46,364 nucleotides of DNA. Source: an uncultured Christensenella sp. Lineage in GTDB: Bacteria > Bacillota > Clostridia > Christensenellales > UBA1242. A model generated the notes under the pieces. It had not been told where the DNA came from and ran no database searches. It saw only the letters and a program-made list of their open reading frames with translations. Shown here piece by piece: positions 3,678 to 46,202 of the stretch (position 1 is its first letter; each line of letters begins with the position of its first letter). The position numbers and the translations under genes were made by a program. The stretch lies in NCBI GenBank assembly GCA_905203645.1, contig CAJKWP010000001.1:1-46364 (forward strand). Direction: 5' to 3'.

Positions 3678-3695
3678 AATTTACCTCTTGAAAAA

Positions 3696-3725: not shown

Positions 3726-3752
3726 ATTATTTGTACAACACTTGCAAAATAA

Positions 3753-3791
3753 GTTTGTGCAAATCAATAACTATTTATTGATTGTTTGTGC
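3753..3791. promoter_or_regulatory. candidate operator: perfect 9+9 bp inverted repeat flanked by 8-bp direct repeats
   Basis: AATCAATAA (3762-3770), ctat, TTATTGATT (3775-3783). GTTTGTGC occurs on both sides (3753-3760 and 3784-3791). Lies in the divergent nifJ/truA intergenic region. Confidence 0.35.
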
Positions 3792-3810
3792 TTTTATTTT
3801 GAAAAAGTGT

Positions 3811-3839
3811 TTGAGTTTAATCAAAAAAAATGATATCAT
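3811..3839 (+). promoter_or_regulatory. candidate promoter of truA (possibly giving a leaderless mRNA)
   Basis: TTGAGT (3811-3816), 17 nt, TGaTATCAT (extended -10, hexamer 3834-3839). The truA ATG is at 3846 and no Shine-Dalgarno precedes it. Confidence 0.35.
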
Positions 3840-3845
3840 AAAAAC

Positions 3846-6799: not shown

Positions 6800-7666
6800 A
6801 TGGAAAAAATATTTGAAATTGAAAATAACTTAATAAAAATAAAAAATTGTGATGAGTTTGATATTGAACACATTCTTGAATGTGGTCAAATTTTTACATA
6901 CGAAAAGAAAGGTGATGATTTTGTTGTGTTTTCAAACGATTATGTCGCAAAAATAACCAAGGTTAAGGATACTTATCTGATTGCGTCAAACAATGCTCAA
7001 TATTTTGTAAATTTTTTTGATTTGAACACTGACTACAACCAAATCAAACAACAAGTTGCCAAGATTTTGACAGATAACAAATTTGACATTGATATTCAAG
7101 AAATGTTCAAGTTTGGAAATGGAATAAGAATTTTGAAGCAGTCCTTTTGTGAAACAGTGATTGGTTTTATGATCTCAGCCAACAACAATATCCCAAGAAT
7201 CAAAAAAAGTATGCAATATATACGCAAAAACTTGGGTGAAAAAAAGTGTTTTGAAAATACTGAATATTACACATTTCCAAGTTTGCAAACACTTTCAGAG
7301 CAAAACGAATATTTTTTTGAAAGTGCAGGCTGTGGGTATAGAGCCAAAAGTTTGGTCAGTACCATAAAAATTCTTCAAAACTCGAATTTTGACGAACTTT
7401 CCAAACTAGACACGCCCAGTTTGAAAAATATCTTGTTGTCTTATAGTGGCATTGGTCCAAAAGTTGCTGATTGCATTTTGCTTTTCTGCTTTGGCAGAAT
7501 GGATGTTTTCCCAGTTGATACTTGGGTGAAAAAAGTTTATTTCGATTTGTACAAACAATGTCCGAATGAAAAAATAATGGCAAAAACACTTGTTGACACA
7601 TTTGGAAGGTATGCTGGCTACGCTCAGCAGTATATGTTTTATTATAAACGAAACAAAAAAGTATAG
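6800..7666 (+). CDS. ogg: 8-oxoguanine DNA glycosylase / HhH-GPD family N-glycosylase-lyase (Ogg type)
   Basis: 288 aa from the ATG at 6800. HhH-GPD signature SGIGPKVADCILLF...VFPVDTWV. The upstream part of the track ORF overlaps rpmA and is discarded. No obvious RBS. Confidence 0.75.
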   Translation: MEKIFEIENNLIKIKNCDEFDIEHILECGQIFTYEKKGDDFVVFSNDYVAKITKVKDTYLIASNNAQYFVNFFDLNTDYNQIKQQVAKILTDNKFDIDIQEMFKFGNGIRILKQSFCETVIGFMISANNNIPRIKKSMQYIRKNLGEKKCFENTEYYTFPSLQTLSEQNEYFFESAGCGYRAKSLVSTIKILQNSNFDELSKLDTPSLKNILLSYSGIGPKVADCILLFCFGRMDVFPVDTWVKKVYFDLYKQCPNEKIMAKTLVDTFGRYAGYAQQYMFYYKRNKKV

Positions 7667-7733: not shown

Positions 7734-8273
7734 ATGTTTTGGGAAGAGGTAACAAAACTTGTAACACAAACGTCCTGGATAGTATTTGGGCTTCTTGGCT
7801 TGGGAATTGTGCTTTGTTTGATTGAAGCAGTTATCCCATCCTATGGTTTTGTTGGAATAAGTGGACTTATATCCTTGGTTGCGGGTATTGTTCTTCATGC
7901 GTTTTTGTCTGGTTCTGTTCTGCAAGTTGTTATAATGCTTGCTATCGTTCTTTTGATTTTGATACTGATAATTTTGCTGTTTATTCGTTCCGCAAAATAT
8001 GGACTTTTGGGAAAGTCCGCACTTGTAGAAAATCATACCGCACTTCCAACAAATTACAACGATCATTTTAACAACGTCAATGTAAGTTTGATAGGGCAAG
8101 TTGGTGTTGTCGTAACAGATTGCAGACCTGTTGGGAAAATGCAATTTGGGGAAGAAATATTGGATGTCCTTTCACGTGATGACTTTTTGTATGTAGGTGA
8201 AAAAGCAAAAGTAATTGATGTTGTTGGAAACAACATTTATGTAGAAAAAATTGTTAAAGGAGTTTTGAAATGA
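7734..8273 (+). CDS. NfeD-family membrane protein
   Basis: 179 aa. Three N-terminal TM helices plus a C-terminal soluble OB-like tail ([25 protein letters not shown]). ATGA overlap with floA. AAAGGAG RBS. Confidence 0.8.
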
Positions 8274-9277
8274 ATATTTTATTGGCTGTTCAAACTTGGG
8301 AAATTATACTTTATGTATTTTTGGGCTTGTTGGTTGTTGCACTTGGTATTTTGATTGCAATAGTGCCACTTAAAACTTGGTTTGTTGCACTTGTGTCTGG
8401 TGCACATGTTTCAATGACAAGATTGGTCGGAATGAAAATGCGTCGTATCAAAGTTGCCGAAATTATTGATGCGTACATTCAAGCAAAAAAAGCCGGCTTG
8501 AATATTGAAATCGTTGACCTTGAAACACACTATATGGCAGGTGGTGACGTTCAAAAAGTTGTAAACTCACTCATATCAGCACACAGTGCAAAATTCAATT
8601 TGTCACTTGACTTGGCAAAAGCAATTGACCTTGCCGGTCGTGATATCTCTCTTGCTGTAAAGCAAAGCGTAACCCCAAAGGTAATTGAAACGGATTGGAT
8701 TTCAGCTATTGCAAAAAACGGTATTGAACTTAGAGTTAAGGCAAGAATTACAGTAAGAGCAAATATATCCAGACTTGTTGGTGGTGCAGGTGAAGAAACA
8801 ATCCTTGCCCGTGTCGGTGAGGGTATCGTTACAACGGTTGGTTCAGCCGAAACTCACACAGTCGTTTTGGAAAATCCTGACTTGATTTCAAAAACGGTAC
8901 TTGCAAAGGGCTTGGACAGCGGTACATCTTATGAGATTATATCAATAGATATGGCTGACATTGACGTTGGAAAGAACATTGGTGCAAGACTTGTTATGGA
9001 CCAAGCTGAAGCAGACAAAACAGTTGCACAAGCAAAAGCCGAAGAAAGAAAGGCGATGGCAGTTGCAACAGAACAAGAAATGCGCGCAAGAACGCAAGAA
9101 ATGAAAGCTATGGTACTTTCGGCAGAAGCAGAAGTTCCAAAAGCGATGGCGGAAGCAATAAAAAACGGAAAAATGGGTGTAATGGATTATTACAAAATTC
9201 AAAATCTGAATTCGGACACAGCAATGCGCAATGCGTTGGCAGGTAATGATCAAAACAAGCCTACTTCACGAAGATAA
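8270..9277 (+). CDS. floA: flotillin-like protein FloA (SPFH domain, YqfA/UPF0365)
   Basis: 335 aa. N-terminal TM then [19 protein letters not shown]...IDAYI, an Ala/Glu-rich coiled coil, and C-terminal [10 protein letters not shown]. Typical of FloA. Confidence 0.9.
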
Positions 9278-9290: not shown

Positions 9291-9923
9291 ATGGCCGGTT
9301 GGTTGATTTTGATATTTATAGCGATGGCATTGTTTGTTGGTTTTATAATTTTTGACAAGCGTAAGTTTTTGTTGGAAAAAATAAAAAAGATACTTAAAAT
9401 TAAGCCCAAAGTAAAGAAGGAAAAAAAAGAAAAATTAAATAAAGAGAAAAAGAAAGAGAAAGTATCCAAAAAAAACAAAAAACAACATGATGCTCACAAA
9501 GAAGAAAAACAAGATTATGACACAATGGTCGACCAAGATAATTTGATGGTTGGAAAAGTTTTTGAACCAGAAGTTAATGATACCAATACAGAATTTGTTG
9601 ATAATTTGCATGAAGACGATATTGACCTTGACAAACTTTTGGCTGAACTTGAAAAAGCTGACCATGAATCAGCTCAAAAGTATAAAGATGACAAATTTAA
9701 TGAAGATAGCAATTTTTTCAAAAACGCTGACAATTTGTCGCTTGACGAAATGAATGACTTTTTGGAAAACACACTGACAAATGATACATCATCTCGCAAC
9801 CATCTTGGAAGATATGGTCTAAACACAAACCTGAGTGGGAAAGAACTTGGCGATGCAATAAAAAATCTTCCACCACAAATCAAAGCAATAATCATAAGCG
9901 ATATACTCAAACCAAAATTTTGA
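9291..9923 (+). CDS. hypothetical membrane-anchored protein with Lys-rich then acidic low-complexity regions
   Basis: 210 aa. One N-terminal TM (WLILIFIAMALFVGFIIF), a KKEKKEK stretch, an acidic middle and a conserved-looking C-terminus. Starts 14 nt after floA. Confidence 0.6.
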   Translation: MAGWLILIFIAMALFVGFIIFDKRKFLLEKIKKILKIKPKVKKEKKEKLNKEKKKEKVSKKNKKQHDAHKEEKQDYDTMVDQDNLMVGKVFEPEVNDTNTEFVDNLHEDDIDLDKLLAELEKADHESAQKYKDDKFNEDSNFFKNADNLSLDEMNDFLENTLTNDTSSRNHLGRYGLNTNLSGKELGDAIKNLPPQIKAIIISDILKPKF

Positions 9924-10047: not shown

Positions 10048-10788
10048 TCAATATCCTTCGATAAGCATCTTGTCAGCAACAAGTGCAATAAATTCGCCAT
10101 TTGTTGGCTTTTCATTTGTATCATAAACCTTTATTTTGAATACCGAATTTATATTTTCGATTTTTCCACGGTTCCATGCAACTTCGATGGCGTGTCTTAT
10201 TGCTCTTTCAACTTTGCTTGCACTTGTTTGAAATTTTGTAGCAATGGCAGGATACAGTTTTTTTGTGATAGAATTTATTATATCAGGATTGTCTATTGCA
10301 AGTTTAATTGCTTCACGCAAATATTGATATCCTTTGATGTGGGCAGGGATGCCGACTGTAATAAATATGTTTGTTATTTTTTCTTCCAATGCCTTGTTTT
10401 TTGCTGCAGGCGCAGGTGCTTGCTCGGTTTCAAAAAGCTCGACTATCCTTTTTTGAAGTACGTTTTTGTCTACAGGCTTGATCATATAATAATTGGCTCC
10501 TTCTGACATGGCTTTTGAAATAAAACCGTCCAATGTCAATGACGAATTGATAATTATTTTTGGTTTGTTTTCAAGTTTGTTGATTTTTGAAAGCAATTCA
10601 AATCCATCAATTCCGCCGATAACAACATCTAAGATAAGCAAGTCGACTTTATTGTTTTTCAAATACTCAAATGTTTTTTCTCCGTTGTTTTCTGTGCCGA
10701 CTACATCATATTTATCTTTAAAAAAATCTTGTAACTCTGCACGATAATTATCGCTATTGTCTGCGATAAAAAGTTTTAATTTTTCCAT
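10048..10788 (-). CDS. spo0A: sporulation master response regulator Spo0A
   Basis: 246 aa. Receiver domain plus the Spo0A-specific C-terminal domain (GIPAHIKGYQYLREAI..., SASKVERAIRHAIEVAWNRG, KPTNGEFIALVADK). Confidence 0.93.
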   Translation of the reverse strand: MEKLKLFIADNSDNYRAELQDFFKDKYDVVGTENNGEKTFEYLKNNKVDLLILDVVIGGIDGFELLSKINKLENKPKIIINSSLTLDGFISKAMSEGANYYMIKPVDKNVLQKRIVELFETEQAPAPAAKNKALEEKITNIFITVGIPAHIKGYQYLREAIKLAIDNPDIINSITKKLYPAIATKFQTSASKVERAIRHAIEVAWNRGKIENINSVFKIKVYDTNEKPTNGEFIALVADKMLIEGY

Positions 10789-17189: not shown

Positions 17190-18467
17190 GTGGATAAAAT
17201 AGAAATTTGTGGTGGCAAAAAACTTTATGGCACCTTGAGTATATCAAGCAGTAAAAACGCAATACTTCCTATTTTGGCAGGAAGTATTTTGTGTAATGGC
17301 AAAGTTGTTTTGAAGAACATACCAGAGTTTGAAGATATAAAAAATATGTGCAATATTTTGCAAACATTGGGTGCCGATATAACAAAGAAAAATGGAACAT
17401 TGGAATTAAACTGCAAGAATATTTGCAATTTTGAACTTCCTGAATGTCAAACAAAACTTTTACGGTCTTCGATTTTTTGTTTGGGGCCGATGCTTGCAAG
17501 GCTCAAAAAAGCAAAAATATCATATCCTGGTGGATGTGCGATAGGGGCAAGACCAATAGATTTACATATTGAAGGTTTGAAAACACTTGGTGTGAAAATT
17601 GATGAACAAGACAGTTTTTTGATGTGTGATGGTGAAAATATGAAGGCAAACGACATACACTTGCGATTTGCAAGTGTGGGTGCCACTGAAAATTTGATGA
17701 TGGCTTGTTGTTGTGCCAAGGGAATGTCACACATTTTCAATCCTGCTCGAGAGCCAGAGATTGTTGATTTGCAGAACTTTTTGAACAGTATGGGGGCAAA
17801 AATAAGTGGTGCCGGCACAAAACGCATCACGATAAAAGGCAGTGAAGACTTTTGTTCAACAATTTACTCGCCTATTTCTGACAGGATAATCACTGGAACA
17901 TTTTTGACAGCGGTTGCTATGACAGGTGGAAAGGTTACATTGAAAAATACAAAAGCGGAACATTTGAAATCTTTGATACAAAAAATTGAAAATAAATGTT
18001 GCAAAATACAGGTTGATAGTGATAAAATAATTGTGCAAGGTGATGGATGTCCAAAGTCATTTGGACACATCCAAACAAAACCTTATCCAGGGTTCCCGAC
18101 GGACTTGCAATCTCAGATGGTTGCGTTGGCTTGCGTTTGCAAAGGGAAGAGCAGTGTAACTGAAAATCTTTTTGAAACGCGTTTCAAGCATGTTCCGCAA
18201 CTTCAAAAAATGGGCGCTGATATAACTGTGGATGGCAAAGTGGCAACTATAAACGGTGGTTTTTTGCATGGGGCGCAGGTGACTGCAACAGATTTGCGAA
18301 GTGGCGCATGTTTGGTTTGTGCTGGTCTTGCTGCAAATGGGAAAACCACAGTGAGTGATGTACATCATATTGACCGTGGATATCAAAAGATTGAGCAAGA
18401 TTTTGCCAGTCTTGGGGCAGACATAAAAAGGATAAAAATTGAAGAAGAAAGCGATAATAATATCTAG
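17190..18467 (+). CDS. murA: UDP-N-acetylglucosamine 1-carboxyvinyltransferase
   Basis: 425 aa with a GTG start. Active-site loop YPGGCAIGARPIDLH retains the Cys. FPTDLQ motif. Confidence 0.95.
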   Translation: MDKIEICGGKKLYGTLSISSSKNAILPILAGSILCNGKVVLKNIPEFEDIKNMCNILQTLGADITKKNGTLELNCKNICNFELPECQTKLLRSSIFCLGPMLARLKKAKISYPGGCAIGARPIDLHIEGLKTLGVKIDEQDSFLMCDGENMKANDIHLRFASVGATENLMMACCCAKGMSHIFNPAREPEIVDLQNFLNSMGAKISGAGTKRITIKGSEDFCSTIYSPISDRIITGTFLTAVAMTGGKVTLKNTKAEHLKSLIQKIENKCCKIQVDSDKIIVQGDGCPKSFGHIQTKPYPGFPTDLQSQMVALACVCKGKSSVTENLFETRFKHVPQLQKMGADITVDGKVATINGGFLHGAQVTATDLRSGACLVCAGLAANGKTTVSDVHHIDRGYQKIEQDFASLGADIKRIKIEEESDNNI

Positions 18468-19239
18468 CGTAGTTTTCGTATGTTTAGCAACGATTTTAAC
18501 GTTGCTTTTTACCGTGTTTTCTGTAAAAAGTATAGAGTATGTTCCGCATAACAAAAACAACATTGACACCTCCTCATTGCAAGTAAACAAAGGTGGTGTG
18601 GTGTTCTTTTTGGACAAGCACAAAATAGAAGATGAAATCCAAAACCAAAACCCACTTATCGACGTGATTAACGTTGAAATAAAATTTCCAAATAAATTGG
18701 TTGTTCACTTTGCTCAACGTGAAGAATTGTTTGCAATAAAAGACAATACAAAAGATACTTTTTATATTTGTGACGAAGATTTTTATGTTGTGAATGTGAT
18801 AAACAGTGCAACTTACGATTCTGTTCAATCAAATGCGGTGTTGATTGAAAACACAAATTTTGATTTTTTACACAAGATTATCAAAGCAGGTGACAGGTTG
18901 TTGTTTTTGGACAAGTCTGACTTGATTTGCAAATTGTCTGATGCATTTTTGCTGAACAATCGTGATATAACCGAGCAAAAGGCTTTGATAAAAAATATAA
19001 AAATTGATTACAGTGACACGCAAGAAATAATATATGACGATGGCGATATAATTTCACTTTACACACATGACGATTTCTTGATAAAAATCTATGCGCCAAA
19101 TTCAAAATTAAATACAAAAATTCAATCTGCGCTTGCATCACTTTCGTTCTGTGTGCCAGATTATTTGAATACACACTATTTGGAAGTTTTGCAAGACGAC
19201 CAGGGTGAAGTGTTTTGCAAATTGTCAATCAAATCTTGA
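18439..19239 (+). CDS. ftsQ: cell division protein FtsQ/DivIB (POTRA)
   Basis: 266 aa. N-terminal TM anchor and a POTRA-like segment (IDVINVEIKFPNKLVVHFAQREELFAI). Lies directly upstream of ftsA-ftsZ. The TTG start overlaps the murA end and is uncertain. Confidence 0.7.
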   Translation: MKKKAIIISSVVFVCLATILTLLFTVFSVKSIEYVPHNKNNIDTSSLQVNKGGVVFFLDKHKIEDEIQNQNPLIDVINVEIKFPNKLVVHFAQREELFAIKDNTKDTFYICDEDFYVVNVINSATYDSVQSNAVLIENTNFDFLHKIIKAGDRLLFLDKSDLICKLSDAFLLNNRDITEQKALIKNIKIDYSDTQEIIYDDGDIISLYTHDDFLIKIYAPNSKLNTKIQSALASLSFCVPDYLNTHYLEVLQDDQGEVFCKLSIKS

Positions 19240-19247
19240 AAAAAGTG

Positions 19248-19276
19248 TTGACATAATATTTTTGAACGCTTATAAT
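19248..19276 (+). promoter_or_regulatory. consensus sigma-70-type promoter upstream of ftsA
   Basis: TTGACA (19248-19253), 17 nt, TATAAT (19271-19276). Confidence 0.65.
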
Positions 19277-19349
19277 TATAAAAAAAATGTTATATTTATG
19301 CATTTTGTAACAAAAAGTCACAATTAACTAGAGGAGAAAAATTTTTGAA

Positions 19350-20489
19350 ATGAAAAAACTTGCAGTTTTGGATATTGGCTCATCAAAAATAAGGGTTGCA
19401 GTGATAAGTGCTAACGCGAAAACCTTTTCTGTTGTTGGTTATGGTGAATGTGAATATGCTGGTTTTTGTGAAGGCAATTTTTTGGAAGAAGATGGATTGA
19501 AATATGCGTTTGGTTTGGCTTTAAGCAATGCGGAAGCAAGTGCGAATTTTCATATAAAAGAGTTGTACGTAGGTTTGCCTGCTGAGTTTTTGACCGTTGT
19601 AAACAAAACCGCAACATTGCAACTTGGTGCAAAGCGCAAAGTTTTGCAATCTGATCTTCAAATTCTGTTTGATCAAGCAAATGATTTCAAATATAACACA
19701 GATTTGACTTTGATTGACGTAACAACACTTGAGTATACACTTGACAACGGCAAAAAATTGGATGACCCGGTTGGCAAAAAGACTGAAAAATTGACTGGTG
19801 ATTTGTCTTATCAGTTAGCAAACAGGCAGGTTATAAATTTACTTAACAATGTATTTGAAAATCTTGGTTTGATTTCGGTTGAATATGTTTCAAGCCCTTT
19901 GTGTGAATGCTTGGCGTTGCTTGATGAAAATGCGCGTAAAGATTATGCTTTGATGATTGATTCTGGTTACATATCAACGCATATTGCTATCTGCAGAGGT
20001 GGTGGGCTTGCTTACTTGGGAAGTTTCTCACTTGGTGGGGGACATATTATGGCCGATTTGGCAGAAGTCCTTAAACTTAATTATAACGACGCAGAAACAT
20101 TGAAAAGAAAACTGGTTTTGACTGTTGAAAACAGAGAGCAAACATATGAAATTCCTGGTGGACAACCTGTAAATGCAATTTTGGCAAATGACGTTGCAAA
20201 ATCTCGTATAAGTATGATTTGTCAAGTAATTGAAAAATGCATTGAAATGTCAAACATAAATTATCCAAAATATTTTCCAGTATTTTTGACAGGCGGTGGA
20301 CTTTCAATGATGAAGGGAGTTAAAGAAGAAATTTCAAAAGAACTTGGACGTTCTGTGGAAATTTTGAACAGTAACACACCGCAATTTACAAGACCGTTTA
20401 ATACGTCGTTGACGTCAATTTGTCAAATGGCATTTGAAAAAAATAAAAAAGCGAACAATTCAATATTGTCAAAAATTTTTAAAAGATAA
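19350..20489 (+). CDS. ftsA: cell division protein FtsA
   Basis: 379 aa. Actin-fold phosphate motifs [10 protein letters not shown] and [13 protein letters not shown] near the C-terminal half. Confidence 0.9.
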
Positions 20490-20503
20490 GGAAGGGAGAA
20501 CAA

Positions 20504-21748
20504 ATGTATAATAATAACAATATCAACCAAATTGCAAACATCAAGGTAATTGGTATCGGTGGTGGTGGAAACAATGCTGTCAATCGTATGATCAGTGCCA
20601 ATATTACAAGTGCACAATTTGTTGCGATTAACACCGACAAACAAGCATTGCTCTTGAGCAAGGCAGAATTAAGGCTTCAAATTGGTGAAAAACTTACCAA
20701 AGGTCTTGGCGCTGGTGCTGAACCTGATATTGGTCAAAAAGCAGCAGAAGAAAGCAAGGCAAGCATAAGCGAAATGTTGAAAGATTCTGACCTTGTATTT
20801 ATTACCGCTGGTATGGGTGGTGGTACAGGCACAGGTGCTGCTCCAGTTGTTGCACAAATTGCCAAAGAAATGGGGATATTGACAATCGCAGTTGTAACAA
20901 AACCATTCAATTTCGAAGGTAAAAAGCGTCTTATGAATGCCGAAAGAGGTATTGAAAACCTTAGAAAACACGTTGATACATTGGTAGTTATACCAAACGA
21001 CAAACTTTTGAAGATTGCTCCAAAAGGAACTCCAATCGTTGAAGCGTTCAGGTATGCAGATGACGTGTTAAGACAAGGTATCCAAGGTATCTCTGATCTT
21101 ATTGTTACTCCAAGTCTTATCAATCTTGACTTTGCCGACGTACGTTCAATCATGAAAAATCGTGGTCTTGCACATATGGGTATCGGTCACGGCAAGGGTG
21201 AAAACAAAACTTTGGAAGCTGTTCGTCAAGCAGTTTCAAGTCCACTTTTGGAAACAACAATCGAAGGTGCAACTGGTGTGCTTTTGAATGTAAAGGGTGG
21301 TATGGATTTACCATTGGATGAAGTTTACGAAGCAGCTGACCTTGTAAAAGGCGTTGTTGATGCAGATTGTAACATCATATTTGGTTCTGGAATTGACGAA
21401 TCAATGAACGACGAAGTGGAAATCACGATTATCGCTACGGGATTTGCTGGCAGTGGAATTTTGGAAGAAAAGGAAAAAGAAAATCCTATTGAAAAAAATG
21501 TAAGAGCATTTTCAAATTTTGAAACAAAAAAAGATTTTGCTGGAACAGATATTTTTGGAAGACCTTTGCAACAACAATCTGAACAACAAGTTCAACAACA
21601 ACCCGCTTCACAACAACCACTTTATACAAATGAAAGACCACAAATTTCAGCTGAAGCGGTTCAGCATGCTGATGGAACACCATCTTCAAGAATACATATT
21701 GAAAATTCGGATATTCCTCCATTTTTGCAAAGACTCAAAAAATTATAA
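20504..21748 (+). CDS. ftsZ: cell division protein FtsZ
   Basis: 414 aa. [10 protein letters not shown] and the tubulin signature [12 protein letters not shown]. Gln-rich linker and conserved C-terminal DIPPFLQR peptide. Confidence 0.97.
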
Positions 21749-21792: not shown

Positions 21793-21958
21793 GTTAAAGA
21801 AATACAATTTGAAATTCAATTTTGTTTTTGGCATTGTTGACGTGGAGTTAATGGGGATAAGAGTTGTTATAATAAATTTTTTTAGAAGAATTTTTATCAA
21901 CAAGTAAAATTATTTGATAAAAAAAATCAATTATGATATATTAAATAATATAAATAGT

Positions 21959-24292
21959 ATGAGAGGCAAAAATCCATTTATAGTGTCCTCAGACACAACA
22001 TACAGGGTTACGGTACCGATGCTTATACTTGCAGTGGTATTGCTCCTTGCTGGATGGGGATTTTTGCCTTTTTCTTTAAACCAGACTTACGCAGCAAGTT
22101 ATTGGTCTAGTTATTATGCTTCAAGTTTTGCTGGTGGAACTGGTTCTCAAAGCAATCCGTATTTGATTTCGACACCTGAACAACTTGCACGTGTGGCGCA
22201 TGTGACAAACAGTAGTTATTATTCTAAATCTTATACCAACAAATATTTCAAATTGACAAACAACATAAATTTGTTAAAGGTTGACAGCAGTGGCAACTTT
22301 GTATTGTGGAAGCCGATTGGAACTTCTACATATCCTTTTTCTGGTCATTTTGATGGTTGTGGATACGAAATCTCTGGTATGCGTATAAAAGATTTTTATA
22401 GCAGCAGTGGTGCACAAGGATTTTTTGGGTGTGTGTACGTAAAAACTGAAAACAGCGTAAGTATAGAAAATGTAAAAATTTCTGGTTCGATTTCAACAAC
22501 CGCATCAATCAATGCTGAAAAAGTCGGTATTGGCGGTTTGATAGGATTTATGGACGGTCTTTATGATATTCAAATTTCAAAAGTGTCAATGAATGTGAAT
22601 ATAAATACACCAAATTCTTTAAATGTTGGCGGACTGATAGGTATTGGTAGCGGTGGTCAGTATGATCAATGCATGAATCAAGCGAATATCATAGCAAAAA
22701 CAAACGTTGGCGGATTGATTGGTCAATCTTGCAGGGTAAGAAGAACAGTAACTGCAAACGGAAAAACTATGACAGTTTCCTCATTATTGAGAATGGAAAA
22801 TTGTTATAATATTGGCAAAATCTCTGTCAATGTAAGCGGCGGGAGTTCTATCGGTGGTTTGATAGGATACATATATGGTTCTTCGACAGACAGCAATATA
22901 GCATATATATATGCTAGTTATAATGGTGGCAATATCGAAGGCGGAACTTCATATCTTAATCCAGCATCAGATGTTGGAGGAATTATCGGCAATGGTGGTA
23001 CTGATACAAACATAGGGATTTCAAACAGTTTCAACAATGCGCGAATTAAAGGTGGAACCAATACAGGTGGCATCATAGGTGGTTTGAGTGGTTGTGCACC
23101 AGATTATTCAAGATCACTAAGATATTGTTATAACTTTGGCAATGTAACAAGTACGAGTAGTGCTTGTGGTGGAATTGTTGGCAGTGTTAATGATAGATTG
23201 GATTTGGTTTCAAATTGCTTTAACGAAGGAAAGGTTGAGGCAACTGGTTCTGCAGGTGGAATAATTGGTTCTTTTTATGGTGTAAATTCATCATCCAATC
23301 TTTTGTATGTCAATAAAAACACAAACATCGGAACGGTTATTGCACAAAGTAATTATTCTGGTGGAATAGTGGGATATGTTAGTCCAAGTACAAAATCAGC
23401 TGAAGTAACAATATTAACTTGTTTGAATAAGAGCGTGAATGGTAGTTATATCAAAGCAAAATTCTATTCTGGCGGTATTGTGGGATATCTAAGTGGTAGA
23501 TCTACAGATTTGATAATAAGAAATTGTAGCAATGAGTCAATAATAGATTGTTCCTTGGTCGCAGGTGGTATTGCGGGCTATATAAATGCACCTTATTACG
23601 AAAAAACAACAGATAGTTGGGTCGGAATAGTTGAAAATTGTGTAAATAAAACGCAAGTAGGAAGATGCACTCGAAAGAATGGTGATGCAAATATATTTGA
23701 TACACCAAATAGTTCTGACATACAGTCTATAGCAAATGAACTTGGTAAACAGGGGCTGTATTATGGTGGGATTCTTGGATACAATGCTGTAGACAGTGTA
23801 AAAGTAACCAATTGTTTGAATTTATTTAATAATTTTCCTGTTATAAATACAGATCCAAACTTGGCTTGGGAAACTGAAAAACCTAAATTGGTTGTTACGG
23901 GACAATATGTGGGGCAAATAATTGGCAGAAATACCAGCGATAGTTCACCAACTGGTATAAATTATTTTGTAATTGAAAAAAGTCCATATATGATATCTTA
24001 TGCATATGGGAATAGCGGTGATGAACAAACCAAGGGGTCTTTATGGAACAAAAGATATCGTATTGTTTATGGTGTAAATGTATCAAATGGACTCGAAGCT
24101 CAAAGTCGTACATCGTCTGTGTACACTAATGATTATATAGACAAAAATTTTCTTGTTTTAAGTTTGCCATCAGATAGTTGCAGTTTGTATAATTGGCGTG
24201 ATAGGTTAAATATAGTTTCCAAGCCTGTTTGGGCATACGGAAATGACAATATCAACAATGGATTGCCATACTTCAAGGATTGGTATTGGTAA
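21959..24292 (+). CDS. secreted GLUG-motif repeat protein (predicted beta-helix surface protein)
   Basis: About 777 aa from the ATG at 21959 (the track ORF begins at TTG 21914). Signal/TM segment MLILAVVLLLAGWGFLPFSLNQTYA. At least 12 repeats of G-G-[LI]-[IVAL]-G (VGGLIG, TGGIIG, SGGIVG, etc.). N-terminal G..SNPY.I.T.EQL...FSGHFDG module typical of GLUG proteins. Confidence 0.7.
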   Translation: MRGKNPFIVSSDTTYRVTVPMLILAVVLLLAGWGFLPFSLNQTYAASYWSSYYASSFAGGTGSQSNPYLISTPEQLARVAHVTNSSYYSKSYTNKYFKLTNNINLLKVDSSGNFVLWKPIGTSTYPFSGHFDGCGYEISGMRIKDFYSSSGAQGFFGCVYVKTENSVSIENVKISGSISTTASINAEKVGIGGLIGFMDGLYDIQISKVSMNVNINTPNSLNVGGLIGIGSGGQYDQCMNQANIIAKTNVGGLIGQSCRVRRTVTANGKTMTVSSLLRMENCYNIGKISVNVSGGSSIGGLIGYIYGSSTDSNIAYIYASYNGGNIEGGTSYLNPASDVGGIIGNGGTDTNIGISNSFNNARIKGGTNTGGIIGGLSGCAPDYSRSLRYCYNFGNVTSTSSACGGIVGSVNDRLDLVSNCFNEGKVEATGSAGGIIGSFYGVNSSSNLLYVNKNTNIGTVIAQSNYSGGIVGYVSPSTKSAEVTILTCLNKSVNGSYIKAKFYSGGIVGYLSGRSTDLIIRNCSNESIIDCSLVAGGIAGYINAPYYEKTTDSWVGIVENCVNKTQVGRCTRKNGDANIFDTPNSSDIQSIANELGKQGLYYGGILGYNAVDSVKVTNCLNLFNNFPVINTDPNLAWETEKPKLVVTGQYVGQIIGRNTSDSSPTGINYFVIEKSPYMISYAYGNSGDEQTKGSLWNKRYRIVYGVNVSNGLEAQSRTSSVYTNDYIDKNFLVLSLPSDSCSLYNWRDRLNIVSKPVWAYGNDNINNGLPYFKDWYW

Positions 24293-24313
24293 AAGCGGCA
24301 AACTTTTTATAAA

Positions 24314-24350
24314 CAAAAAAACAAGTCGGATGACGTCCGACTTGTTTTTA
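24314..24350. terminator. bidirectional rho-independent terminator after the GLUG gene
   Basis: ACAAGTCGGA (24321-24330), tgacg loop, TCCGACTTGT (24336-24345). A-run before, T-run after. Confidence 0.85.
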
Positions 24351-24472: not shown

Positions 24473-24655
24473 TTAACCTCTTTTTCTTGCTTTTTTTCTT
24501 GCTGCCTCAGATTTCTTTTTGCGTTTTACGCTTGGTTTATCATAAGCTTCTTTCTTTCTCAAATCGCCGATGATACCGTCTTTTTGGCATTTTCTTTTGA
24601 ATCTTTTCAAAGCACTTTCCAAACTTTCGTTTTCGCCGACTTTGACTGTGGTCAT
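24473..24655 (-). CDS. rpsU: 30S ribosomal protein S21
   Basis: 60 aa from the ATG at 24655 (RBS AAAGGTGGTGA). [29 protein letters not shown]... Confidence 0.93.
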
Positions 24656-39604: not shown

Positions 39605-39793
39605 AGTAGTCCTTTTGTTTATTACTTTAAAAGTATATGTATATTATATCAAAAAATTGATTATAAACAACTAAAATCCGTAATATTTTCAAGATAAAAA
39701 TTATAGAATATTTTATCATTTTATGCCTAGTTTTAATCAAACGCTTTATTTTTGTACTTTTGATAGTAAAATGAAATTGACAAGGAGATGAAA

Positions 39794-41245
39794 ATGATAG
39801 AATTGACTAAATTGCTTCAAGGGATAGATTTTCAAGCAAAAGGGAATATGAAAAACATCGAAATAAAAAATGTATGTTTTAACAGTAAAGAAGTCAAAAG
39901 GGGCTATTTGTTTGTATGTTTGAAAGGCGTAAATACTGATGGACATGAATATTTCCTTGAAGCCGAGAAAAATGGTGCAGTCGCTATCGTTTGTGAACAT
40001 TGGCTAGACAGTGATTTGCCACAAATCTTGGTTGAAAATACAAGAAAGACGTTGGCTCTTCTTTCTGCCAATTTTTATGGCAATCCCGCAAAAAAACTTA
40101 AACTGATCGGTATTACTGGGACAAATGGAAAAACCACCACAACAATGGTAGTAAGGGATATACTTATCCAAAACAACAAAAAGGTTGGTGTTATAGGTAC
40201 ATTGGGTTATTTTATCGACAAAAAGCATTATGTTTGTGATTTGACAACTCCAGACCCGATGCGTTTACATAAAATTTTTTCAATTATGCTTGAAAAGGGT
40301 GTAGAGTACGTTGCCATGGAAGTATCGGCACATGCTATTGCATTGGAAAAAATACATGGATTGGAATTCGTTGTCGGGGCTCTTACAAATATAACTCAAG
40401 ATCATCTTGATTTTTTCAAGACAATGGACAATTACATAAAGACCAAGTTTAAATTTATGACATCGCCAGCACTGAAAACATCTTTGCTTAATGCGGATGA
40501 CGATTCGGTACATTTTTTGGAAAACGATATTTCATTCACTTATGGCATAGTTCAACCATCTGATTGTTTTGCTATGGATTTGTGTTTACAAATGGGCAGA
40601 AGCAGATATATTCTTAATTTGTTTGATAATGTAATAAATATCGACACAAAACTTTCGGGTGTATTTAATGTTTACAATGTATTGCTCGGAAGTGCGATTG
40701 CTTGTATACTGGGGGTTGATACAAAAATTATACAGTTGGCAATTTCCAAGATGAAGCCAGTTGAAGGCAGATATAATGTAATAAATACGAACAACGGAAG
40801 TGTAGTCATTGATTTTGCACACACGCCTGACGGACTTGAAAATATTTTGAAAAGTATAAGGCAAACTTCTAACGCAAAGATTGTAACAGTGTTTGGGTGT
40901 GGTGGCAATCGCGACAATAAAAAAAGACCAATTATGGGAGCAATTGCTGAAAAATACAGCGATTTTTGTTTTGTAACAACTGACAATCCAAGATTTGAGA
41001 ATCCAGACTTGATTGCGGAAGATATTTTGGATGGAATGAAAAACAAAGATGTCGTAGTTGTAGAAAATGATCGTAAAAAAGCAATAATGTTGGCACTTGA
41101 AAAACTTGACAAAAACACGATAGTGGCAGTTTGCGGAAAGGGTGGAGAAAAATATCAAGACATAAATGGTGTAATGTCACCATTCAATGACGTTACAATA
41201 GTAAAAGATTGTTTGAAGGAACTAGGGTTTAAAATATTGAAATAA
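39794..41245 (+). CDS. murE: UDP-N-acetylmuramoyl-L-alanyl-D-glutamate--2,6-diaminopimelate ligase
   Basis: GITGTNGKTTT P-loop. The DNPR motif (TTDNPRFE) suggests meso-DAP specificity. ATG at 39794 is better spaced from AAGGAG (39782-39787) than the track start at 39788. Confidence 0.93.
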   Translation: MIELTKLLQGIDFQAKGNMKNIEIKNVCFNSKEVKRGYLFVCLKGVNTDGHEYFLEAEKNGAVAIVCEHWLDSDLPQILVENTRKTLALLSANFYGNPAKKLKLIGITGTNGKTTTTMVVRDILIQNNKKVGVIGTLGYFIDKKHYVCDLTTPDPMRLHKIFSIMLEKGVEYVAMEVSAHAIALEKIHGLEFVVGALTNITQDHLDFFKTMDNYIKTKFKFMTSPALKTSLLNADDDSVHFLENDISFTYGIVQPSDCFAMDLCLQMGRSRYILNLFDNVINIDTKLSGVFNVYNVLLGSAIACILGVDTKIIQLAISKMKPVEGRYNVINTNNGSVVIDFAHTPDGLENILKSIRQTSNAKIVTVFGCGGNRDNKKRPIMGAIAEKYSDFCFVTTDNPRFENPDLIAEDILDGMKNKDVVVVENDRKKAIMLALEKLDKNTIVAVCGKGGEKYQDINGVMSPFNDVTIVKDCLKELGFKILK

Positions 41246-41301
41246 TGTTCAAATAAATATTTTAAATTTGCACAGCATATTTATAGTACATGGAGAAATA
41301 A

Positions 41302-42291
41302 GTGGAAAAAAATATTATTGCCTTTATTCTTGCTTTGCTCATAGCAACAATTGTCGCACCTTTTATAATAAAGTACACAAAACAACTTAAAGCATCCCAA
41401 ACAATTTTGAAGTATGTCAAAGAACATAGTGGAAAGCAAGGAACACCTACGATGGGGGGAATTATATTTTTAACTTCATTTTTGGTTGTTAATTTGCTTC
41501 TGCTTGGAAATGACAGTACGTTATCGTTTGTAAGTTTGGCATCTACCATTGCATTTGGGATACTTGGCTTTTTGGATGATTTTATAAAAATTCGATTCAA
41601 ACAAAATGAGGGGCTCAAAGCATATCAAAAAATAATTGGACAAGTTGGTATATCAATAATTCTTGCATACTTCGTTTATCGTTTTGTTGGCAGTGAAGTT
41701 TTTTTGCCATTCACTTTGACCAAAGTTGATTTTGGTTTTTGGATTATTCCTTTTGTTGTTTTTGTTTATCTGGCAATGGTAAACAGTGTAAATCTTATTG
41801 ATGGTCTTGATGGATTATGTAGTGGTACATCTATTTCTTATATACTAGCAGTAGTATTATTTTTAACATTATTTGCACAAAAGATGGGGTTTGTGGGTTT
41901 GCAGATGGCAGAAATAAATAATCTTGTTATGTCGTGCTGTATCTTGATTGGAGCATTGTCAGGATTTGTTTTGGTCAATTGTTTTCCAGCCAAAATATTT
42001 ATGGGTGACACTGGTTCATTGGCTCTAGGAGGTTTTTTGACATCGGCTTTGATATTCAGTCAAAACCCATTTATGATAGCATTATTCGGCATTATGTTCG
42101 TAGTTACAGCTTTATCGGATATTATCCAAGTGTTTGTGTTCAAAACAAAACATAAGCGTGTTTTCAAAATGGCACCATTACATCATCACTTTCAAATGTG
42201 TGGTATGCATGAAAATCGAATTGTCGCAGTATACATAGTTATAACTGTGGCAGTAAGTTTGATTTGTATTTATTTGACCGCAGTTTTGTAA
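41302..42291 (+). CDS. mraY: phospho-N-acetylmuramoyl-pentapeptide transferase
   Basis: 329 aa with a GTG start after TGGAG. NLIDGLDGL, MGDTGSLALGG, APLHHHF. Confidence 0.95.
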   Translation: MEKNIIAFILALLIATIVAPFIIKYTKQLKASQTILKYVKEHSGKQGTPTMGGIIFLTSFLVVNLLLLGNDSTLSFVSLASTIAFGILGFLDDFIKIRFKQNEGLKAYQKIIGQVGISIILAYFVYRFVGSEVFLPFTLTKVDFGFWIIPFVVFVYLAMVNSVNLIDGLDGLCSGTSISYILAVVLFLTLFAQKMGFVGLQMAEINNLVMSCCILIGALSGFVLVNCFPAKIFMGDTGSLALGGFLTSALIFSQNPFMIALFGIMFVVTALSDIIQVFVFKTKHKRVFKMAPLHHHFQMCGMHENRIVAVYIVITVAVSLICIYLTAVL

Positions 42292-42299
42292 GGAGATTT

Positions 42300-43586
42300 A
42301 TGAAACTTAAAAATGTTCCTGTGCTAGTTTATGGTTTGGGAAAAACTGGCATGGAAACTATAAAATTTTTGCAAAAAAGAAAAGCAAACGTTTTTATTTT
42401 CGATGACACAAGTTTTTTGAAAATTCCAAATACTCAGTGGTTGAACGAGCAGTGCGATTTGTCATTCTTAAAATTTGTGGTTGTAAGTCCTGGGATTGGT
42501 GAAACCAAGTTTTTGAACAAATTGAAACTTTTCAAAATTCCAGTTTACAGCGAATTTAAATTTGCTTGTCAGTTTTTGAAAACAAAGCTCATTGCGATAA
42601 CTGGAACAAATGGAAAAACTACGACGGCAAGTCTTTTGGGAAAAATATTGAATGATGCTGGCAAAAAGACTATTGTATGTGGAAATATAGGCAATCCGTT
42701 GATAAGTTGTATTTGCAGACAAAAAGAGTACAAATTTATAGTATGTGAGGTAAGTAGTTTTCAACTTGAAAATTTGGGAGATGTCAATTCATACATATCG
42801 GTTTTGTTGAATATCAAGCCTGACCATTTGGAAAGACATAAAACATTTGAAAATTATCAAGAACTCAAATTTTCGATATTCAAAAAACAAAAGAAAAGAT
42901 CGTTTGCAATCGTGAACAAAAATCTGAAAAATAAATATTGCTTGCATGGATTTCAAAACAATGCAATTACTTTTTCTGCTTATGAACAAGCTGATGCTTA
43001 TATGTATGGCGCCAATCTTGTCTACAAAGATGTGTCGATTGATACAAAAAAATTGAACTTGTTTGGCAAAAAAAATTTTGAAAATATTTTGACGTGTATG
43101 ATCGTTGCAAAGGTTTGCAAAATAAAACCTGTAGTTATTGTTGAAAGCATCACATCTTTCAGGGGATTGGATCACAGAATTCAATTTGTAAAAGAAATTG
43201 GTGGTGTAAAATATTTTGACGACAGCAAAGCAACAAATCCCGATAGTACAAATTGTGCACTGGAAATTTTTGACAAAAATGTAATTTTGCTTCTTGGGGG
43301 ATATGACAAGGGGTTGGATTATACTTCAATATTTGTTTCTAACAAAAATATCAAAGCGTTGATTGCTTTTGGGCAGGCAAAAGATGCGATTGCCCTTTGT
43401 GCACAAAAAAACAACATTGACAAGATAGTGAAGTGTAACAAATTAAAAGATGCAATACTCAAATCTAACGAGATTGGGCAAAGTGGGGATATTGTATTAC
43501 TTTCTCCTGCCTGTTCGAGTTTTGACGAATTTGAAAATTTTGAAAAAAGAGGGGAGTACTTTGCTGATTTTGTGAATGGTTTATAG
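42300..43586 (+). CDS. murD: UDP-N-acetylmuramoylalanine--D-glutamate ligase
   Basis: 428 aa from the ATG at 42300 (AAGGAG at 42290-42295). GLGKTG Rossmann motif, GTNGKTTT, DDSKATN. Confidence 0.93.
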   Translation: MKLKNVPVLVYGLGKTGMETIKFLQKRKANVFIFDDTSFLKIPNTQWLNEQCDLSFLKFVVVSPGIGETKFLNKLKLFKIPVYSEFKFACQFLKTKLIAITGTNGKTTTASLLGKILNDAGKKTIVCGNIGNPLISCICRQKEYKFIVCEVSSFQLENLGDVNSYISVLLNIKPDHLERHKTFENYQELKFSIFKKQKKRSFAIVNKNLKNKYCLHGFQNNAITFSAYEQADAYMYGANLVYKDVSIDTKKLNLFGKKNFENILTCMIVAKVCKIKPVVIVESITSFRGLDHRIQFVKEIGGVKYFDDSKATNPDSTNCALEIFDKNVILLLGGYDKGLDYTSIFVSNKNIKALIAFGQAKDAIALCAQKNNIDKIVKCNKLKDAILKSNEIGQSGDIVLLSPACSSFDEFENFEKRGEYFADFVNGL

Positions 43587-43594
43587 GAGAATGT

Positions 43595-44818
43595 ATGAAA
43601 AATAAATTTGTACAGGCTTTCAGTTTGAGAAAAAGACAAGATGACAGAAAAATAAATTTTGGCAGTATTTTCAAACTGGACAAAACTTGTTGGGTTATTT
43701 TGATAAGTGTTTTGCTTCTTGCGGTATTTGGATGCATTATGGTTTACAGTGCAAGCTATTATCTTTCATCACTGGCTGGCAATAAGTACAGGTATCTTAT
43801 AAAGCAAATTGTTGGTGTTGTGCTTGGTATTGTGGGAATGATGTTCTTTTCGATCTTTCCATATCAAAATTTGAAAAAGTTTAAATGGTGGGCAGTTGTA
43901 ATTTCAATGCTGCTTTTGGCTTGCGTTTTTATACCAGGAATTGGAATTGAAAATTATGGCGCAAGAAGGTGGATTGGCTTGGGTGGATTTTCTTTTCAAC
44001 CAAGTGAAATAGCCAAATTCGCACTAGTTTTGTTTTGTGCATGTCACTTGTCTGAACATTATGATAATGTAAAATCATTCAAGGCGTTGTTGCCTGTATT
44101 GTTGGTTGGTGGCATATTTTGTGTTATGGTTATTTTGGAACCCAATATGAGCATTACAATGTGTATAGCAATAACTCTTATTGTGATGCTTTTTGTGGGC
44201 GGTATAAGTTTCAAACATTTTTCATATCTTGCAGTTCCATCTATGGCAATGGTACCCATTTTGATATTTATGGAACCGTACAGGATAAAAAGGCTTATGG
44301 CATTTTTGGATCCCTGGGCATCGCCAAAGGGTGAGGGATTTCAACTTATACAATCTTTGTATGCACTTGGCTCGGGCGGTTTGTTTGGAGTTGGGCTTTT
44401 TTGTTCCAGACAAAAATACTTGTTCTTGCCATTTTGTGAAAGCGACTTTATTTTTTCGATAATAGGTGAAGAGCTTGGATTTTTTGGTGCGCTTGCGTTG
44501 CTTATTGTATTTTTGATTTTGGTAATATTTCTGATTAAAACAGCATGCGGTGCCAAAGACAGATTTGGTTGTTTGCTTGCTGTTGGCGTGGCAACTGTTA
44601 TAGCTGTTCAAGTGCTTATAAACGTTGCAGTGGTGACAGGTTCAATTCCGCCAACAGGTCTGCCTTTGCCATTTGTGTCAGCAGGAAGTACATCACTTGT
44701 AGTTTTTATGAGTGCAATAGGTGTTTGTATCAATATAAGAAAAGAATCAAAAAGTTATGTATTTGATGAAGTGTCAAAAAACAATAAAAAAACTGTTTTA
44801 ACATCAGGAATTGAGTAG
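43595..44818 (+). CDS. ftsW: SEDS-family peptidoglycan glycosyltransferase FtsW (or SpoVE)
   Basis: 407 aa, about 10 TM. FQPSEIAK and PLPFVSAGSTSL motifs. Lies downstream of murD. Confidence 0.9.
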   Translation: MKNKFVQAFSLRKRQDDRKINFGSIFKLDKTCWVILISVLLLAVFGCIMVYSASYYLSSLAGNKYRYLIKQIVGVVLGIVGMMFFSIFPYQNLKKFKWWAVVISMLLLACVFIPGIGIENYGARRWIGLGGFSFQPSEIAKFALVLFCACHLSEHYDNVKSFKALLPVLLVGGIFCVMVILEPNMSITMCIAITLIVMLFVGGISFKHFSYLAVPSMAMVPILIFMEPYRIKRLMAFLDPWASPKGEGFQLIQSLYALGSGGLFGVGLFCSRQKYLFLPFCESDFIFSIIGEELGFFGALALLIVFLILVIFLIKTACGAKDRFGCLLAVGVATVIAVQVLINVAVVTGSIPPTGLPLPFVSAGSTSLVVFMSAIGVCINIRKESKSYVFDEVSKNNKKTVLTSGIE

Positions 44819-44836
44819 AAGAGATGATGCAGATAT

Positions 44837-44865
44837 TTGACTTTTGGATAAAAATTTTGTAATAT
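44837..44865 (+). promoter_or_regulatory. promoter of the large ncRNA
   Basis: TTGACT (44837-44842), 17 nt, TAATAT (44860-44865). The predicted start falls about 44871-44873, exactly where the terminal helix begins. Confidence 0.55.
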
Positions 44866-44870
44866 AAACA

Positions 44871-45467
44871 TGGAGGCGCAGTATTCTAGTCGCTTTGGTT
44901 TGCTTGGAAGATGAGTTTAAAGGCATCAAAGGGCACAACTGTGAAGTTTCTGGTGCATGCTTCGGTTGCCCAAATTGGGGTGTGTGCTGGGAGTTAAGAT
45001 TTTTGGGCGCGTTGTAACGGCATACAATTTCCGTCCCAACTTTCGTGGAGACCCAGTTGGGTGGGAAAAATATTATTTTTTTCCACTCCCTGGATATGAA
45101 CCTGCAGTGCGGTGATAAGCTGTGTGCAGAGTAGCCTGCTTTGCGTGACATTTGGGGATGTTCCACAAAAACAAATCGTCAAAAATGGCCAATTTGTTGG
45201 TTTGTTCGGTCTGAAACATATGTTGCAAAAAAAGCTAATGGCAAATCAAAGTGTCAAGGAAAACTTCTAGACTGTTGCTTGTCAAACATATCAGGGATTA
45301 TAGTGTGGTCTAAGTGGCGATTCGGTGCAAAAGTGATTTTCAAAAGGAAACTGCTTACACGGCAACGGTAAGTAAATCATGCAGGGAAAACCTACCGAAC
45401 CTATGCCGCAAGGTTTACTTGATATGTTGCCTCCAAAATTTGTTTGTTATGACCTTATGGTCTTTTT
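44871..45467 (+). ncRNA. large (about 600 nt) structured noncoding RNA, OLE-like candidate
   Basis: Lies in a 667-nt gap with no credible CDS. 49 G+C in 44931-45030 versus 23 in 44701-44800 (hand count). Terminal helix TGGAGGC (44871-44877) / GCCTCCA (45429-45435). Internal helices: 44931-35/44967-71, 44989-94/45085-90, 45035-41/45055-61, 45061-70/45077-86, 45360-64/45404-08, 45366-70/45393-97. G-U pairs fit only the + strand. Weak hairpin plus T5 at 45451-45467. A multi-TM protein gene follows. Confidence 0.6.
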
Positions 45468-45485
45468 ATATAAAGGATGTAAAAT

Positions 45486-46160
45486 ATGGAAGAACCCAAA
45501 CCGCCTTTACAAAATCAAAACAAGAAAAAAGTAAAGGCAACTGCAAAAACTCAAAAATGGTGGATGTGGCCCGTCAAGATTTTCTTTTTGTCATTGGCAT
45601 TATCACTGGTGTTCAGTATAGGCAGTGAATTTGTAATGTCTGCATCTGGAATAATTATTTCTTCGCTAATCATTGTTGTATTGATTGTAATTGCAGTTGT
45701 TGCAGACATGGTAGGTGTGGCAGTTACTGCGTGTTCGGTTGAACCTTTCACTGCAATGGCTTCAAGAAAGGTACGTGGTGCAAGGGAAGCACTTGTACTT
45801 TTGAAAAATGCGGAAAAGGTAAGTAGTCTTTGTAATGATGTACTTGGTGATATTTGTGGTATCGTCAGTGGTGCTGCAGGGGCGTCGATTGTAACAAGAA
45901 TAACAATCAATATGACGTCAAATGCTGGGCTTATACTGATAGGTGCACTCTTGAGTTCATTTATTGCAGCCTTGACTATATTTTCAAAAGCGCTTGGCAA
46001 AAAATATTCAATTGATAACTGCAACAAAATCACTTTGCTTGCGGGCAAGATGTTAAGTCCATTCATTGGCAAAGAAAAGATAGATATAAAACCAAAACCC
46101 AAAACAGAAAAGGTTTTGATTGAAGTAAAAACTGAAACAGACAAAGATTTGAAAAATTAA
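45486..46160 (+). CDS. multi-pass membrane protein downstream of the large RNA (OapA-like candidate)
   Basis: 224 aa. AAGGA RBS. Basic N-terminus (KKKVKATAKTQK), about four hydrophobic helices, a D-x-x-x-D inside a helix (NDVLGDICGIVSGAAG) and a charged Lys-rich C-tail. Its own terminator follows. Confidence 0.7.
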   Translation: MEEPKPPLQNQNKKKVKATAKTQKWWMWPVKIFFLSLALSLVFSIGSEFVMSASGIIISSLIIVVLIVIAVVADMVGVAVTACSVEPFTAMASRKVRGAREALVLLKNAEKVSSLCNDVLGDICGIVSGAAGASIVTRITINMTSNAGLILIGALLSSFIAALTIFSKALGKKYSIDNCNKITLLAGKMLSPFIGKEKIDIKPKPKTEKVLIEVKTETDKDLKN

Positions 46161-46173: not shown

Positions 46174-46202
46174 AAAGAAGGGGAGATACCTTCTTTTTTT
46201 TT
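46174..46202 (+). terminator. rho-independent terminator
   Basis: AAAGAAGG (46174-46181), ggagata loop, CCTTCTTT (46189-46196), then a T-run. Confidence 0.8.

Follow-up and report, generated by a model that had tools for sequence, protein, structure and literature searches.

The 667-nt gap that follows ftsW in the stretch of DNA analysed here (the window, 46,364 nt from an uncultured Christensenella sp.) is almost certainly the gene for an OLE RNA, followed by oapA for its membrane protein partner, and we put the probability of this reading at about 0.96. The whole window was scanned against all 4227 Rfam families, and OLE (RF01071) was matched at 44857–45449 on the plus strand with a score of 395.8 bits against a gathering threshold of 50 and an E-value of 6.4e-113. 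The alignment spans model positions 1–616 of 616 and is not truncated, and it is the sole gathering-level match in the window. In a permissive scan (E ≤ 0.05) no second RNA family overlapped the OLE region, and the rest of the window gave one chance-level sRNA match at 24275–24349. At this same permissive level GOLLD, ROOL, HEARO, raiA, RNase P and tmRNA had zero matches window-wide, and ARAGORN found no tRNA or tmRNA in the window; a preliminary description of this DNA had likewise seen no signature of RNase P or tmRNA. That description had also proposed an OLE-type RNA accompanied by an oapA-like gene and placed the RNA on the plus strand, and it was right in both respects, since the match to RF01071 is full-length and on that strand and the helices covary in relatives. 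The ole-oapA pair is a correctly identified member of a known family and not a new discovery. The genes and the RNA concerned are:

43595–44818 (+), ftsW, a gene of the ftsW/spoVE (SEDS) family, matched by PF01098 with 327.7 bits and by the ftsW model TIGR02614 with 354.3 bits against a cutoff of 337.5

44871–45435 (+), core of the OLE RNA from P1 to P1, 565 nt, in an overall length class of about 600 nt

45486–46160 (+), oapA, encoding a 224-aa membrane protein, assigned from its DxxxD motif, its position after ole and its fold

The oapA reading frame is preceded by a ribosome binding site (AAAGGA, 45472–45477) and starts 36 nt past the end of the Rfam OLE match. The 224-aa protein gave no match in Pfam or NCBIfam, so its membership in the OapA family rests on motif, context and fold. 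It carries the sequence D118-V-L-G-D122 (DVLGD, residues 118–122), in which both aspartates are invariant in 18 homologues, and the DxxxD motif is a distinctive feature of OapA that is not found in CNNM domains (PMC11332333). PF01595 (CNNM) is weakly matched by 16 of the 18 family members, with a best E-value of 5.9e-8, and the window protein itself has no match to it at E ≤ 1; the weak matches of the homologues agree with the weak homology to MpfA/CNNM that has been published for OapA. The AF2 model (pLDDT 66.6) contains four long helices at residues 27–53, 56–82, 109–142 and 147–177, three of which are clear in a hydropathy scan, the helix bearing the DxxxD motif being less hydrophobic. In a Foldseek search of the PDB, ranks 1–4 were taken by chains of MtCorB (7M1T, 7M1U), all of them weak matches (E 0.04–0.5, TM about 0.3), and 7M1U is the entry that Fernando and Breaker overlaid on OapA (PMC11332333). 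The OapA alignment, used as a profile against PDB sequences, matched nothing at E ≤ 1. Between helices 2 and 3 lies a basic stretch with Lys or Arg at positions 94, 95, 97, 100, 107 and 111, and this loop (residues 94–111) fits the positive-charge cluster reported for OapA. The N-terminal tail is rich in lysine and the C-terminal tail is of low confidence in the AF2 model.

The motif, the weak CNNM/CorB likeness, the predicted helices and the position directly after ole together identify 45486–46160 as oapA, as had been suggested before, on published hallmarks of the family. Compared with the Mg2+ transporters of the MpfA/CorB/CNNM group, the predicted transmembrane fold shows a weak resemblance to the CNNM domain, but the window protein is devoid of CBS and CorC domains, has the DxxxD motif and is paired with an RNA.

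Public data contain 1314 homologues of the 224-aa protein. A profile search of genome contigs with the single protein found no match, and related loci were found by searching contigs with an alignment of 18 protein sequences. The loci encoding homologues all belong to metagenome-assembled genomes (MAGs) of uncultured gut Clostridia, with Christensenellales-like, 'Candidatus Onthoplasma', 'Caccopulliclostridium' and Oscillospiraceae lineages represented. A search of these loci with an nhmmer profile built from four OLE sequences gave an OLE RNA in 82 of 86, and in 81 of them it immediately precedes the oapA homologue; two of the four loci with no match are cut by the contig end. The Rfam model confirms the OLE RNA in eight of the loci (L001–L006, L023 and L082) at 353–393 bits. 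In L082, a 'Bacilli bacterium' MAG, the OLE RNA (3243–3853, 376 bits) precedes oapA (7001–7537) at a distance of about 3.2 kb. In L043 (oapA homologue at 7001–7504) and L072 (7001–7567), neither nhmmer nor the Rfam model detected OLE in the 7 kb upstream, and in L043 tRNA genes stand upstream of the homologue in place of OLE. The genes in these two loci may be oapA separated from ole, or paralogues.

The secondary structure was evaluated on 72 distinct full-length OLE sequences from gut Clostridia genomes, aligned with MAFFT, onto which the Rfam consensus structure was projected from the window sequence, with the closing helix of the preliminary description added. The structural elements referred to below are:

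44871–44877 (+), 5' strand of stem P1, UGGAGGC, perfectly complementary to 45429–45435

44947–44993 (+), long 20-bp G-U-rich hairpin with a conserved GCCCA loop, Rfam model positions 93–139

45138–45235 (+), composite hairpin of four stacked helices with a conserved GGCCA loop, Rfam model positions 286–385

45285–45428 (+), 3' multi-helix domain, comprising helices 16–20, which are 89–98% paired with many compensatory changes

45285–45295/45418–45428 and 45304–45308/45406–45410 (+), nested stems of the 3' domain, from the Rfam alignment

45321–45326/45394–45399 (+), P12.2-equivalent stem, from the Rfam alignment, stem naming as in PMC7936274

45327–45333 (+), 7-nt linker GCAAAAG at the P13 site, where Rfam model positions of about 478–496 are deleted

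45332–45383 (+), P14-equivalent long hairpin with a GCAA tetraloop, enclosed by the nested stems, from the Rfam alignment, stem naming as in PMC7936274

45429–45435 (+), 3' strand of stem P1, GCCUCCA, from complementarity and covariation

The window sequence accommodates 147 pairs of the Rfam model, and in 133 of them the two bases form a standard pair. Across the 72 sequences 85.6% of the cells are paired, as against 41–46% when the 3' partners are slid by 1–3 columns, and compensatory changes affecting both sides are present in 121 of 154 pairs; none of 500 shuffles reaches any of the observed pairing or covariation measures. The closing helix TGGAGGC/GCCTCCA is a perfect complement, as described earlier, and is the OLE stem P1, in which 6 of the 7 pairs covary and 94.4% of the cells in the 72 sequences are paired, typical variants being GGAGGC/GCCUCC, GAAGGC/GCCUUC, GGUGGU/ACCACC and GGCGGC/GCCGCC. 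The hairpin at 44947–44993 (helix 3) has 95.9% of its cells paired and 13 of its 20 pairs covarying. In the composite hairpin at 45138–45235 the outer helices 9 and 10 are 84–90% paired and the inner variable stems, helices 11–13, are 45–58% paired. The MAFFT alignment is poor in these inner stems, and because of this their support comes entirely from the Rfam alignment of the window; the low values in this long central stem are a limit of the alignment and no evidence against the stem. Two G-U pairs had been cited earlier in favour of the plus strand, of which g45065-t45082 is real and g45088-t45201 is wrong, position 45088 being a C. About 25% of the nucleotides are invariant in the OLE alignment of 72 sequences. 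In the OLE RNAs of the Oscillospiraceae (about 670 nt, for example L062 and L074) the long G-U-rich stem is followed by an inserted GC-rich hairpin (columns 146–178) and the hairpin at alignment columns 323–344 is longer; the clade of the window has neither the inserted nor the lengthened hairpin.

The one departure from the Rfam model is found between the P12.2- and P14-equivalents, where about 20 model positions form a hairpin, P13, and the window has the linker GCAAAAG. Among the 72 aligned OLE RNAs this site is occupied by a linker of 5–7 nt in 40 sequences and by a hairpin in 32, and P13 is absent from 39 of the 71 relatives, including all of those closest to the window. Where it is retained, P13 is mostly a hairpin 24 nt long and capped by a GNRA tetraloop (GUGA, GCAA or GCGA), and a single-nucleotide bulge is seen in the retained stem sequences read by eye. 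A third state, beside P13 present and P13 absent, is observed in the OLE RNAs of L027 and L045, which have an AU-rich hairpin of 25–37 nt with no GNRA loop at the P13 site (columns 609–646). In the crystal structure, P13 with its GNRA tetraloop and bulge is the primary docking site of OapB (PMC7936274). The loss of P13 was considered as a novelty and rejected as such, since it has already been published for OLE RNAs of gut clades with reduced genomes (PMC11332333).

Because the published variant OLE RNAs are also devoid of P13 (PMC11332333), its absence excludes the full-length subtype of OLE but not the OLE family. With P13 missing, the particle cannot be identical to that of Halalkalibacterium halodurans, and since P13 is the OapB site, this OLE copy presumably works without OapB as a reduced particle, as has been reported for gut clades with reduced genomes. 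Relative to the full-length OLE RNAs of H. halodurans, Clostridium acetobutylicum and C. botulinum, the window has in common the length of about 600 nt, the conserved sequence blocks, the stems from P1 through the 3' domain, an oapA gene immediately downstream and an anaerobic Bacillota host, and it differs in having P13 replaced by the 7-nt linker. The second comparison is with the variant 1 OLE RNAs (Fernando and Breaker 2024, PMC11332333), which occur in TANB77 and further gut clades. That variant and the window copy are alike in lacking the OapB-binding P13 nucleotides, and the closest relatives here are likewise from the gut, being uncultured Clostridia known solely as MAGs. In variant 1, P7–P9 are described as shortened too, whereas the central hairpins of the window align almost without deletions. 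Assignment of this copy to variant 1 is tentative. To judge from its alignment to the Rfam model, the copy looks like a full-size OLE RNA minus P13, with central hairpins that are not shortened.

The loss of P13 could also mark a gene on its way out of a reduced gut genome, in which case the locus would be a decaying, non-functional OLE remnant. One stem, 45000–45002 with 45040–45042, has 3–4 consecutive non-standard pairs, and defective ole genes have been reported in organisms without OapA (PMC11332333). However, the same stem (helix 4) is weak throughout the family, the RF01071 score is as high as in any relative and 90% of the model pairs are intact. The 40 sequences of the 72 that are without P13 retain the covarying helices and the approximately 25% of invariant nucleotides, and in the window the oapA reading frame, the DxxxD motif and the promoter are all intact. 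We therefore consider decay very unlikely and the locus an OLE RNA gene that has the P13-less form.

Transcription of this gene was analysed through the following signals:

44837–44865 (+), candidate sigma-70 promoter of ole from a consensus scan, with a −35 hexamer TTGACT at 44837–44842, a 17-nt spacer and a −10 hexamer TAATAT at 44860–44865

45451–45467 (+), weak hairpin GACC/GGUC of 4 bp followed by U5, from a folding test against shuffles

46174–46202 (+), intrinsic terminator ending the ole-oapA unit, with an 8-bp stem AAAGAAGG/CCUUCUUU, a 7-nt loop and a U run, from reading of the sequence

The candidate promoter, described earlier as near-consensus, is present, but taken alone it is weak, as it agrees with the consensus at 9 of 12 positions, and matches of this quality are about as frequent here as in shuffled sequence (5 found against 4.4 expected). 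What stands is its conserved position. In 71% of the 72 loci P1 is preceded, at a distance of 3–12 nt, by the end of a hexamer with at least 5 of 6 matches to TATAAT, compared with 9.6% for such hexamers at random positions in the same loci, and 30 of the hexamers have the TG typical of an extended −10 element. Because the −10 position is conserved in relatives, comparison gives good support to a dedicated putative promoter of ole, from which transcription would begin near 44871. We infer a transcript start at about 44871–44873, and the approximate 5' end at 44871 given in the preliminary description agrees with this.

A terminator scan detected no terminator-like site between ftsW and ole, and read-through from the mur-ftsW genes into ole is possible. 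The hairpin and T5 at 45451–45467, noted before as a weak element just after the RNA, are present and indeed weak. The z-score of the hairpin is −0.35, with 63 of 200 shuffles folding at least as well, and the terminator scan did not call it. As a true terminator between ole and oapA it was rejected, having 4 bp and folding no better than shuffles; at best it is a leaky terminator. For the hairpin at 46174–46202 the scan reported a minus-strand site only, and the plus-strand T-run was read directly from the sequence. With no terminator between ftsW and ole, a weak hairpin between ole and oapA and a strong one after oapA, the likely transcript is ole-oapA, which would start at a promoter of its own and might additionally arise by read-through from the mur-ftsW operon. 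The ole cluster of H. halodurans gives a single polycistronic RNA (PMC12265935).

Probable co-transcription of ole and oapA, with only the weak hairpin between them, is also what would be expected of an RNA that is mainly a cis-acting leader controlling oapA rather than a trans-acting component of a ribonucleoprotein (RNP) particle. This arrangement is argued against on three grounds. In the model species OapA has as its partner an abundant RNA that is processed and localised at the membrane (PMC12265935), in L082 the OLE gene stands some 3.2 kb away from oapA, and a 565-nt core with about 25% invariant nucleotides far exceeds what known leaders need. A leader function is, in our estimation, less probable still than decay, and an RNA acting in trans with OapA is the reading followed here.

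By analogy with the particles studied in H. halodurans and Clostridium, OapA would bind the OLE RNA of the window cooperatively and hold it at the cell membrane, and the RNA would dimerise. OLE RNA is known to be bound by OapA and to require it for localisation at the membrane (Block et al. 2011, cited in PMC12265935). The binding is cooperative, with a stoichiometry of 2:1 or more, OLE RNA dimerises, and cryo-EM models suggest that one long OLE stem may cross the bilayer (PMC12265935, PMC11332333). When the OLE RNP is lost, H. halodurans becomes more sensitive to short-chain alcohols, to cold and to Mg2+ above 2 mM, and also to growth on poor carbon sources (PMC12265935, PMC11332333), and if the analogy holds the particle encoded here would help cells to withstand such stresses.

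The host separates this locus from the classical OLE organisms, as it belongs to a low-G+C, gut-type lineage of Clostridia and is no extremophile; the window encodes Spo0A and pyruvate:ferredoxin oxidoreductase, in keeping with an anaerobic member of the Bacillota. Apart from the hedge in the preliminary description, which allowed for a distinct large RNA, this non-extremophile host is the one point that would favour a new class of large structured RNA resembling OLE merely in size and context. OLE RNAs are however already known from non-extremophile anaerobic gut Bacillota (PMC11332333), and the full-length match at an E-value of 6e-113, with conserved OLE sequence blocks in register, excludes a distinct RNA and leaves this alternative with practically no probability.

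The gap itself, from the ftsW stop to the next credible start (44819–45485), has the reported 667 nt and is the longest of the 31 intergenic gaps in the window, 11 of which exceed 200 nt. Several of the other long gaps contain small genes (rpsP, a KH-domain protein, rpsU and ylxM). The G+C values counted by hand in the preliminary description are exact, with 49 of 100 nucleotides in 44931–45030 and 23 of 100 in 44701–44800. The RNA as a whole has 42.5% G+C compared with 35.0% for the window, a modest enrichment only, because parts of ftsW reach 42% too. That the region is instead protein-coding, through the open reading frames of 62–120 codons present at 44804–45166 (−), 44994–45182 (−), 45141–45371 (+) and 45314–45628 (+), can be dismissed, as these frames overlap each other on both strands, the substitutions in relatives keep base pairs and not reading frames, non-triplet indels are common among the relatives and the RNA model accounts fully for the region.

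The gene order in the window leading to the OLE gene is rnhA (−), a uridine-kinase-like gene (−), murE, mraY, murD, ftsW, ole and oapA. The same mur-ftsW-ole-oapA order is found in a species with an OapA 66% identical to that of the window (L001, L002 and L007), in which argR, recN and spoIVB continue downstream of oapA, and also in the Christensenellales MAG L023. In a species at 55% OapA identity the order is asp23-nusB-xseA-xseB-proS-ole-oapA-argR-recN. The asp23-nusB-xseA-xseB genes upstream and argR-recN(-spoIVB) downstream in relatives are the classical ole neighbourhood. Full-length OLE loci and the close relatives here share argR-recN on the downstream side, while the upstream neighbour in the window is ftsW and not ispA or xseB. 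In a count over 74 loci, ole is preceded by xseA in 13, ispA in 12, proS in 8 and ftsW in 5, with many singletons making up the rest; in the 13 xseA loci the short xseB probably lies between xseA and ole. The placement after murE-mraY-murD-ftsW, to which attention had been drawn earlier, is thus real and shared by a few species, but it is a lineage-specific minority arrangement. With ftsW in 5 of 74 loci, its adjacency was rejected as a general feature of ole and is attributed to a local rearrangement on the upstream side in a few related species. ftsW is context only and lies outside the RNP module. The division and cell-wall genes of the window form two blocks about 18 kb apart, one at 17190–21748 (murA-like/unknown/ftsA/ftsZ) and one at 39788–44818 (murE/mraY/murD/ftsW). 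No murG follows ftsW, and ole-oapA occupy the place where murG often lies.

In this small clade ole-oapA stand directly behind murE-mraY-murD-ftsW without a terminator, and the arrangement could reflect an OapB-independent minimal OLE particle that is linked in function to the synthesis of peptidoglycan or to the formation of a septum or spore cortex. Such a coupling would fit recent proposals in which a portion of OLE RNA lies beyond the membrane, close to the cell wall. A relation of the OLE RNP to cell wall biology has already been suggested (PMC11332333), cell wall biosynthesis genes have already been listed among ole neighbours (PMC12265935), and a literature search joining OLE RNA and ftsW found no paper. 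We regard the coupling as improbable, if less so than decay of the gene.

OLE RNAs are among the largest bacterial noncoding RNAs of unknown biochemical function, and each instance adds comparative data. Little is new in the present one, as the public Rfam model finds the RNA at once and the gene partner is the expected one, and both the missing P13 and this kind of neighbourhood have already been described. It is of modest use as a clean example of a P13-less OLE RNA that keeps full-size central domains, and as a pointer to the few related gut species with ole-oapA right behind mur-ftsW genes.

Three further reading frames of the window were without a Pfam match at E ≤ 1e-6, namely those of 792 aa at 21914–24292 (+), right after ftsA-ftsZ, of 210 aa at 9291–9923, and of 266 aa at 18439–19239, between a murA/EPSP-synthase-family gene and ftsA. 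The gene rpsU (24473–24655, −), encoding bS21, is the only gene in a 548-nt 'gap' that lies about 20 kb before ole. The protein bS21 was recently proposed as an OLE RNP component (PMC12054373); with rpsU not adjacent to ole, its presence in the window is probably a coincidence. NfeD and a flotillin-like FloA, which are membrane microdomain proteins, and Spo0A are encoded at 7734–9277 (+) and 10048–10788 (−). Spo0A marks a spore-forming lineage, and its presence in the window agrees with reports that OLE correlates with sporulation genes.
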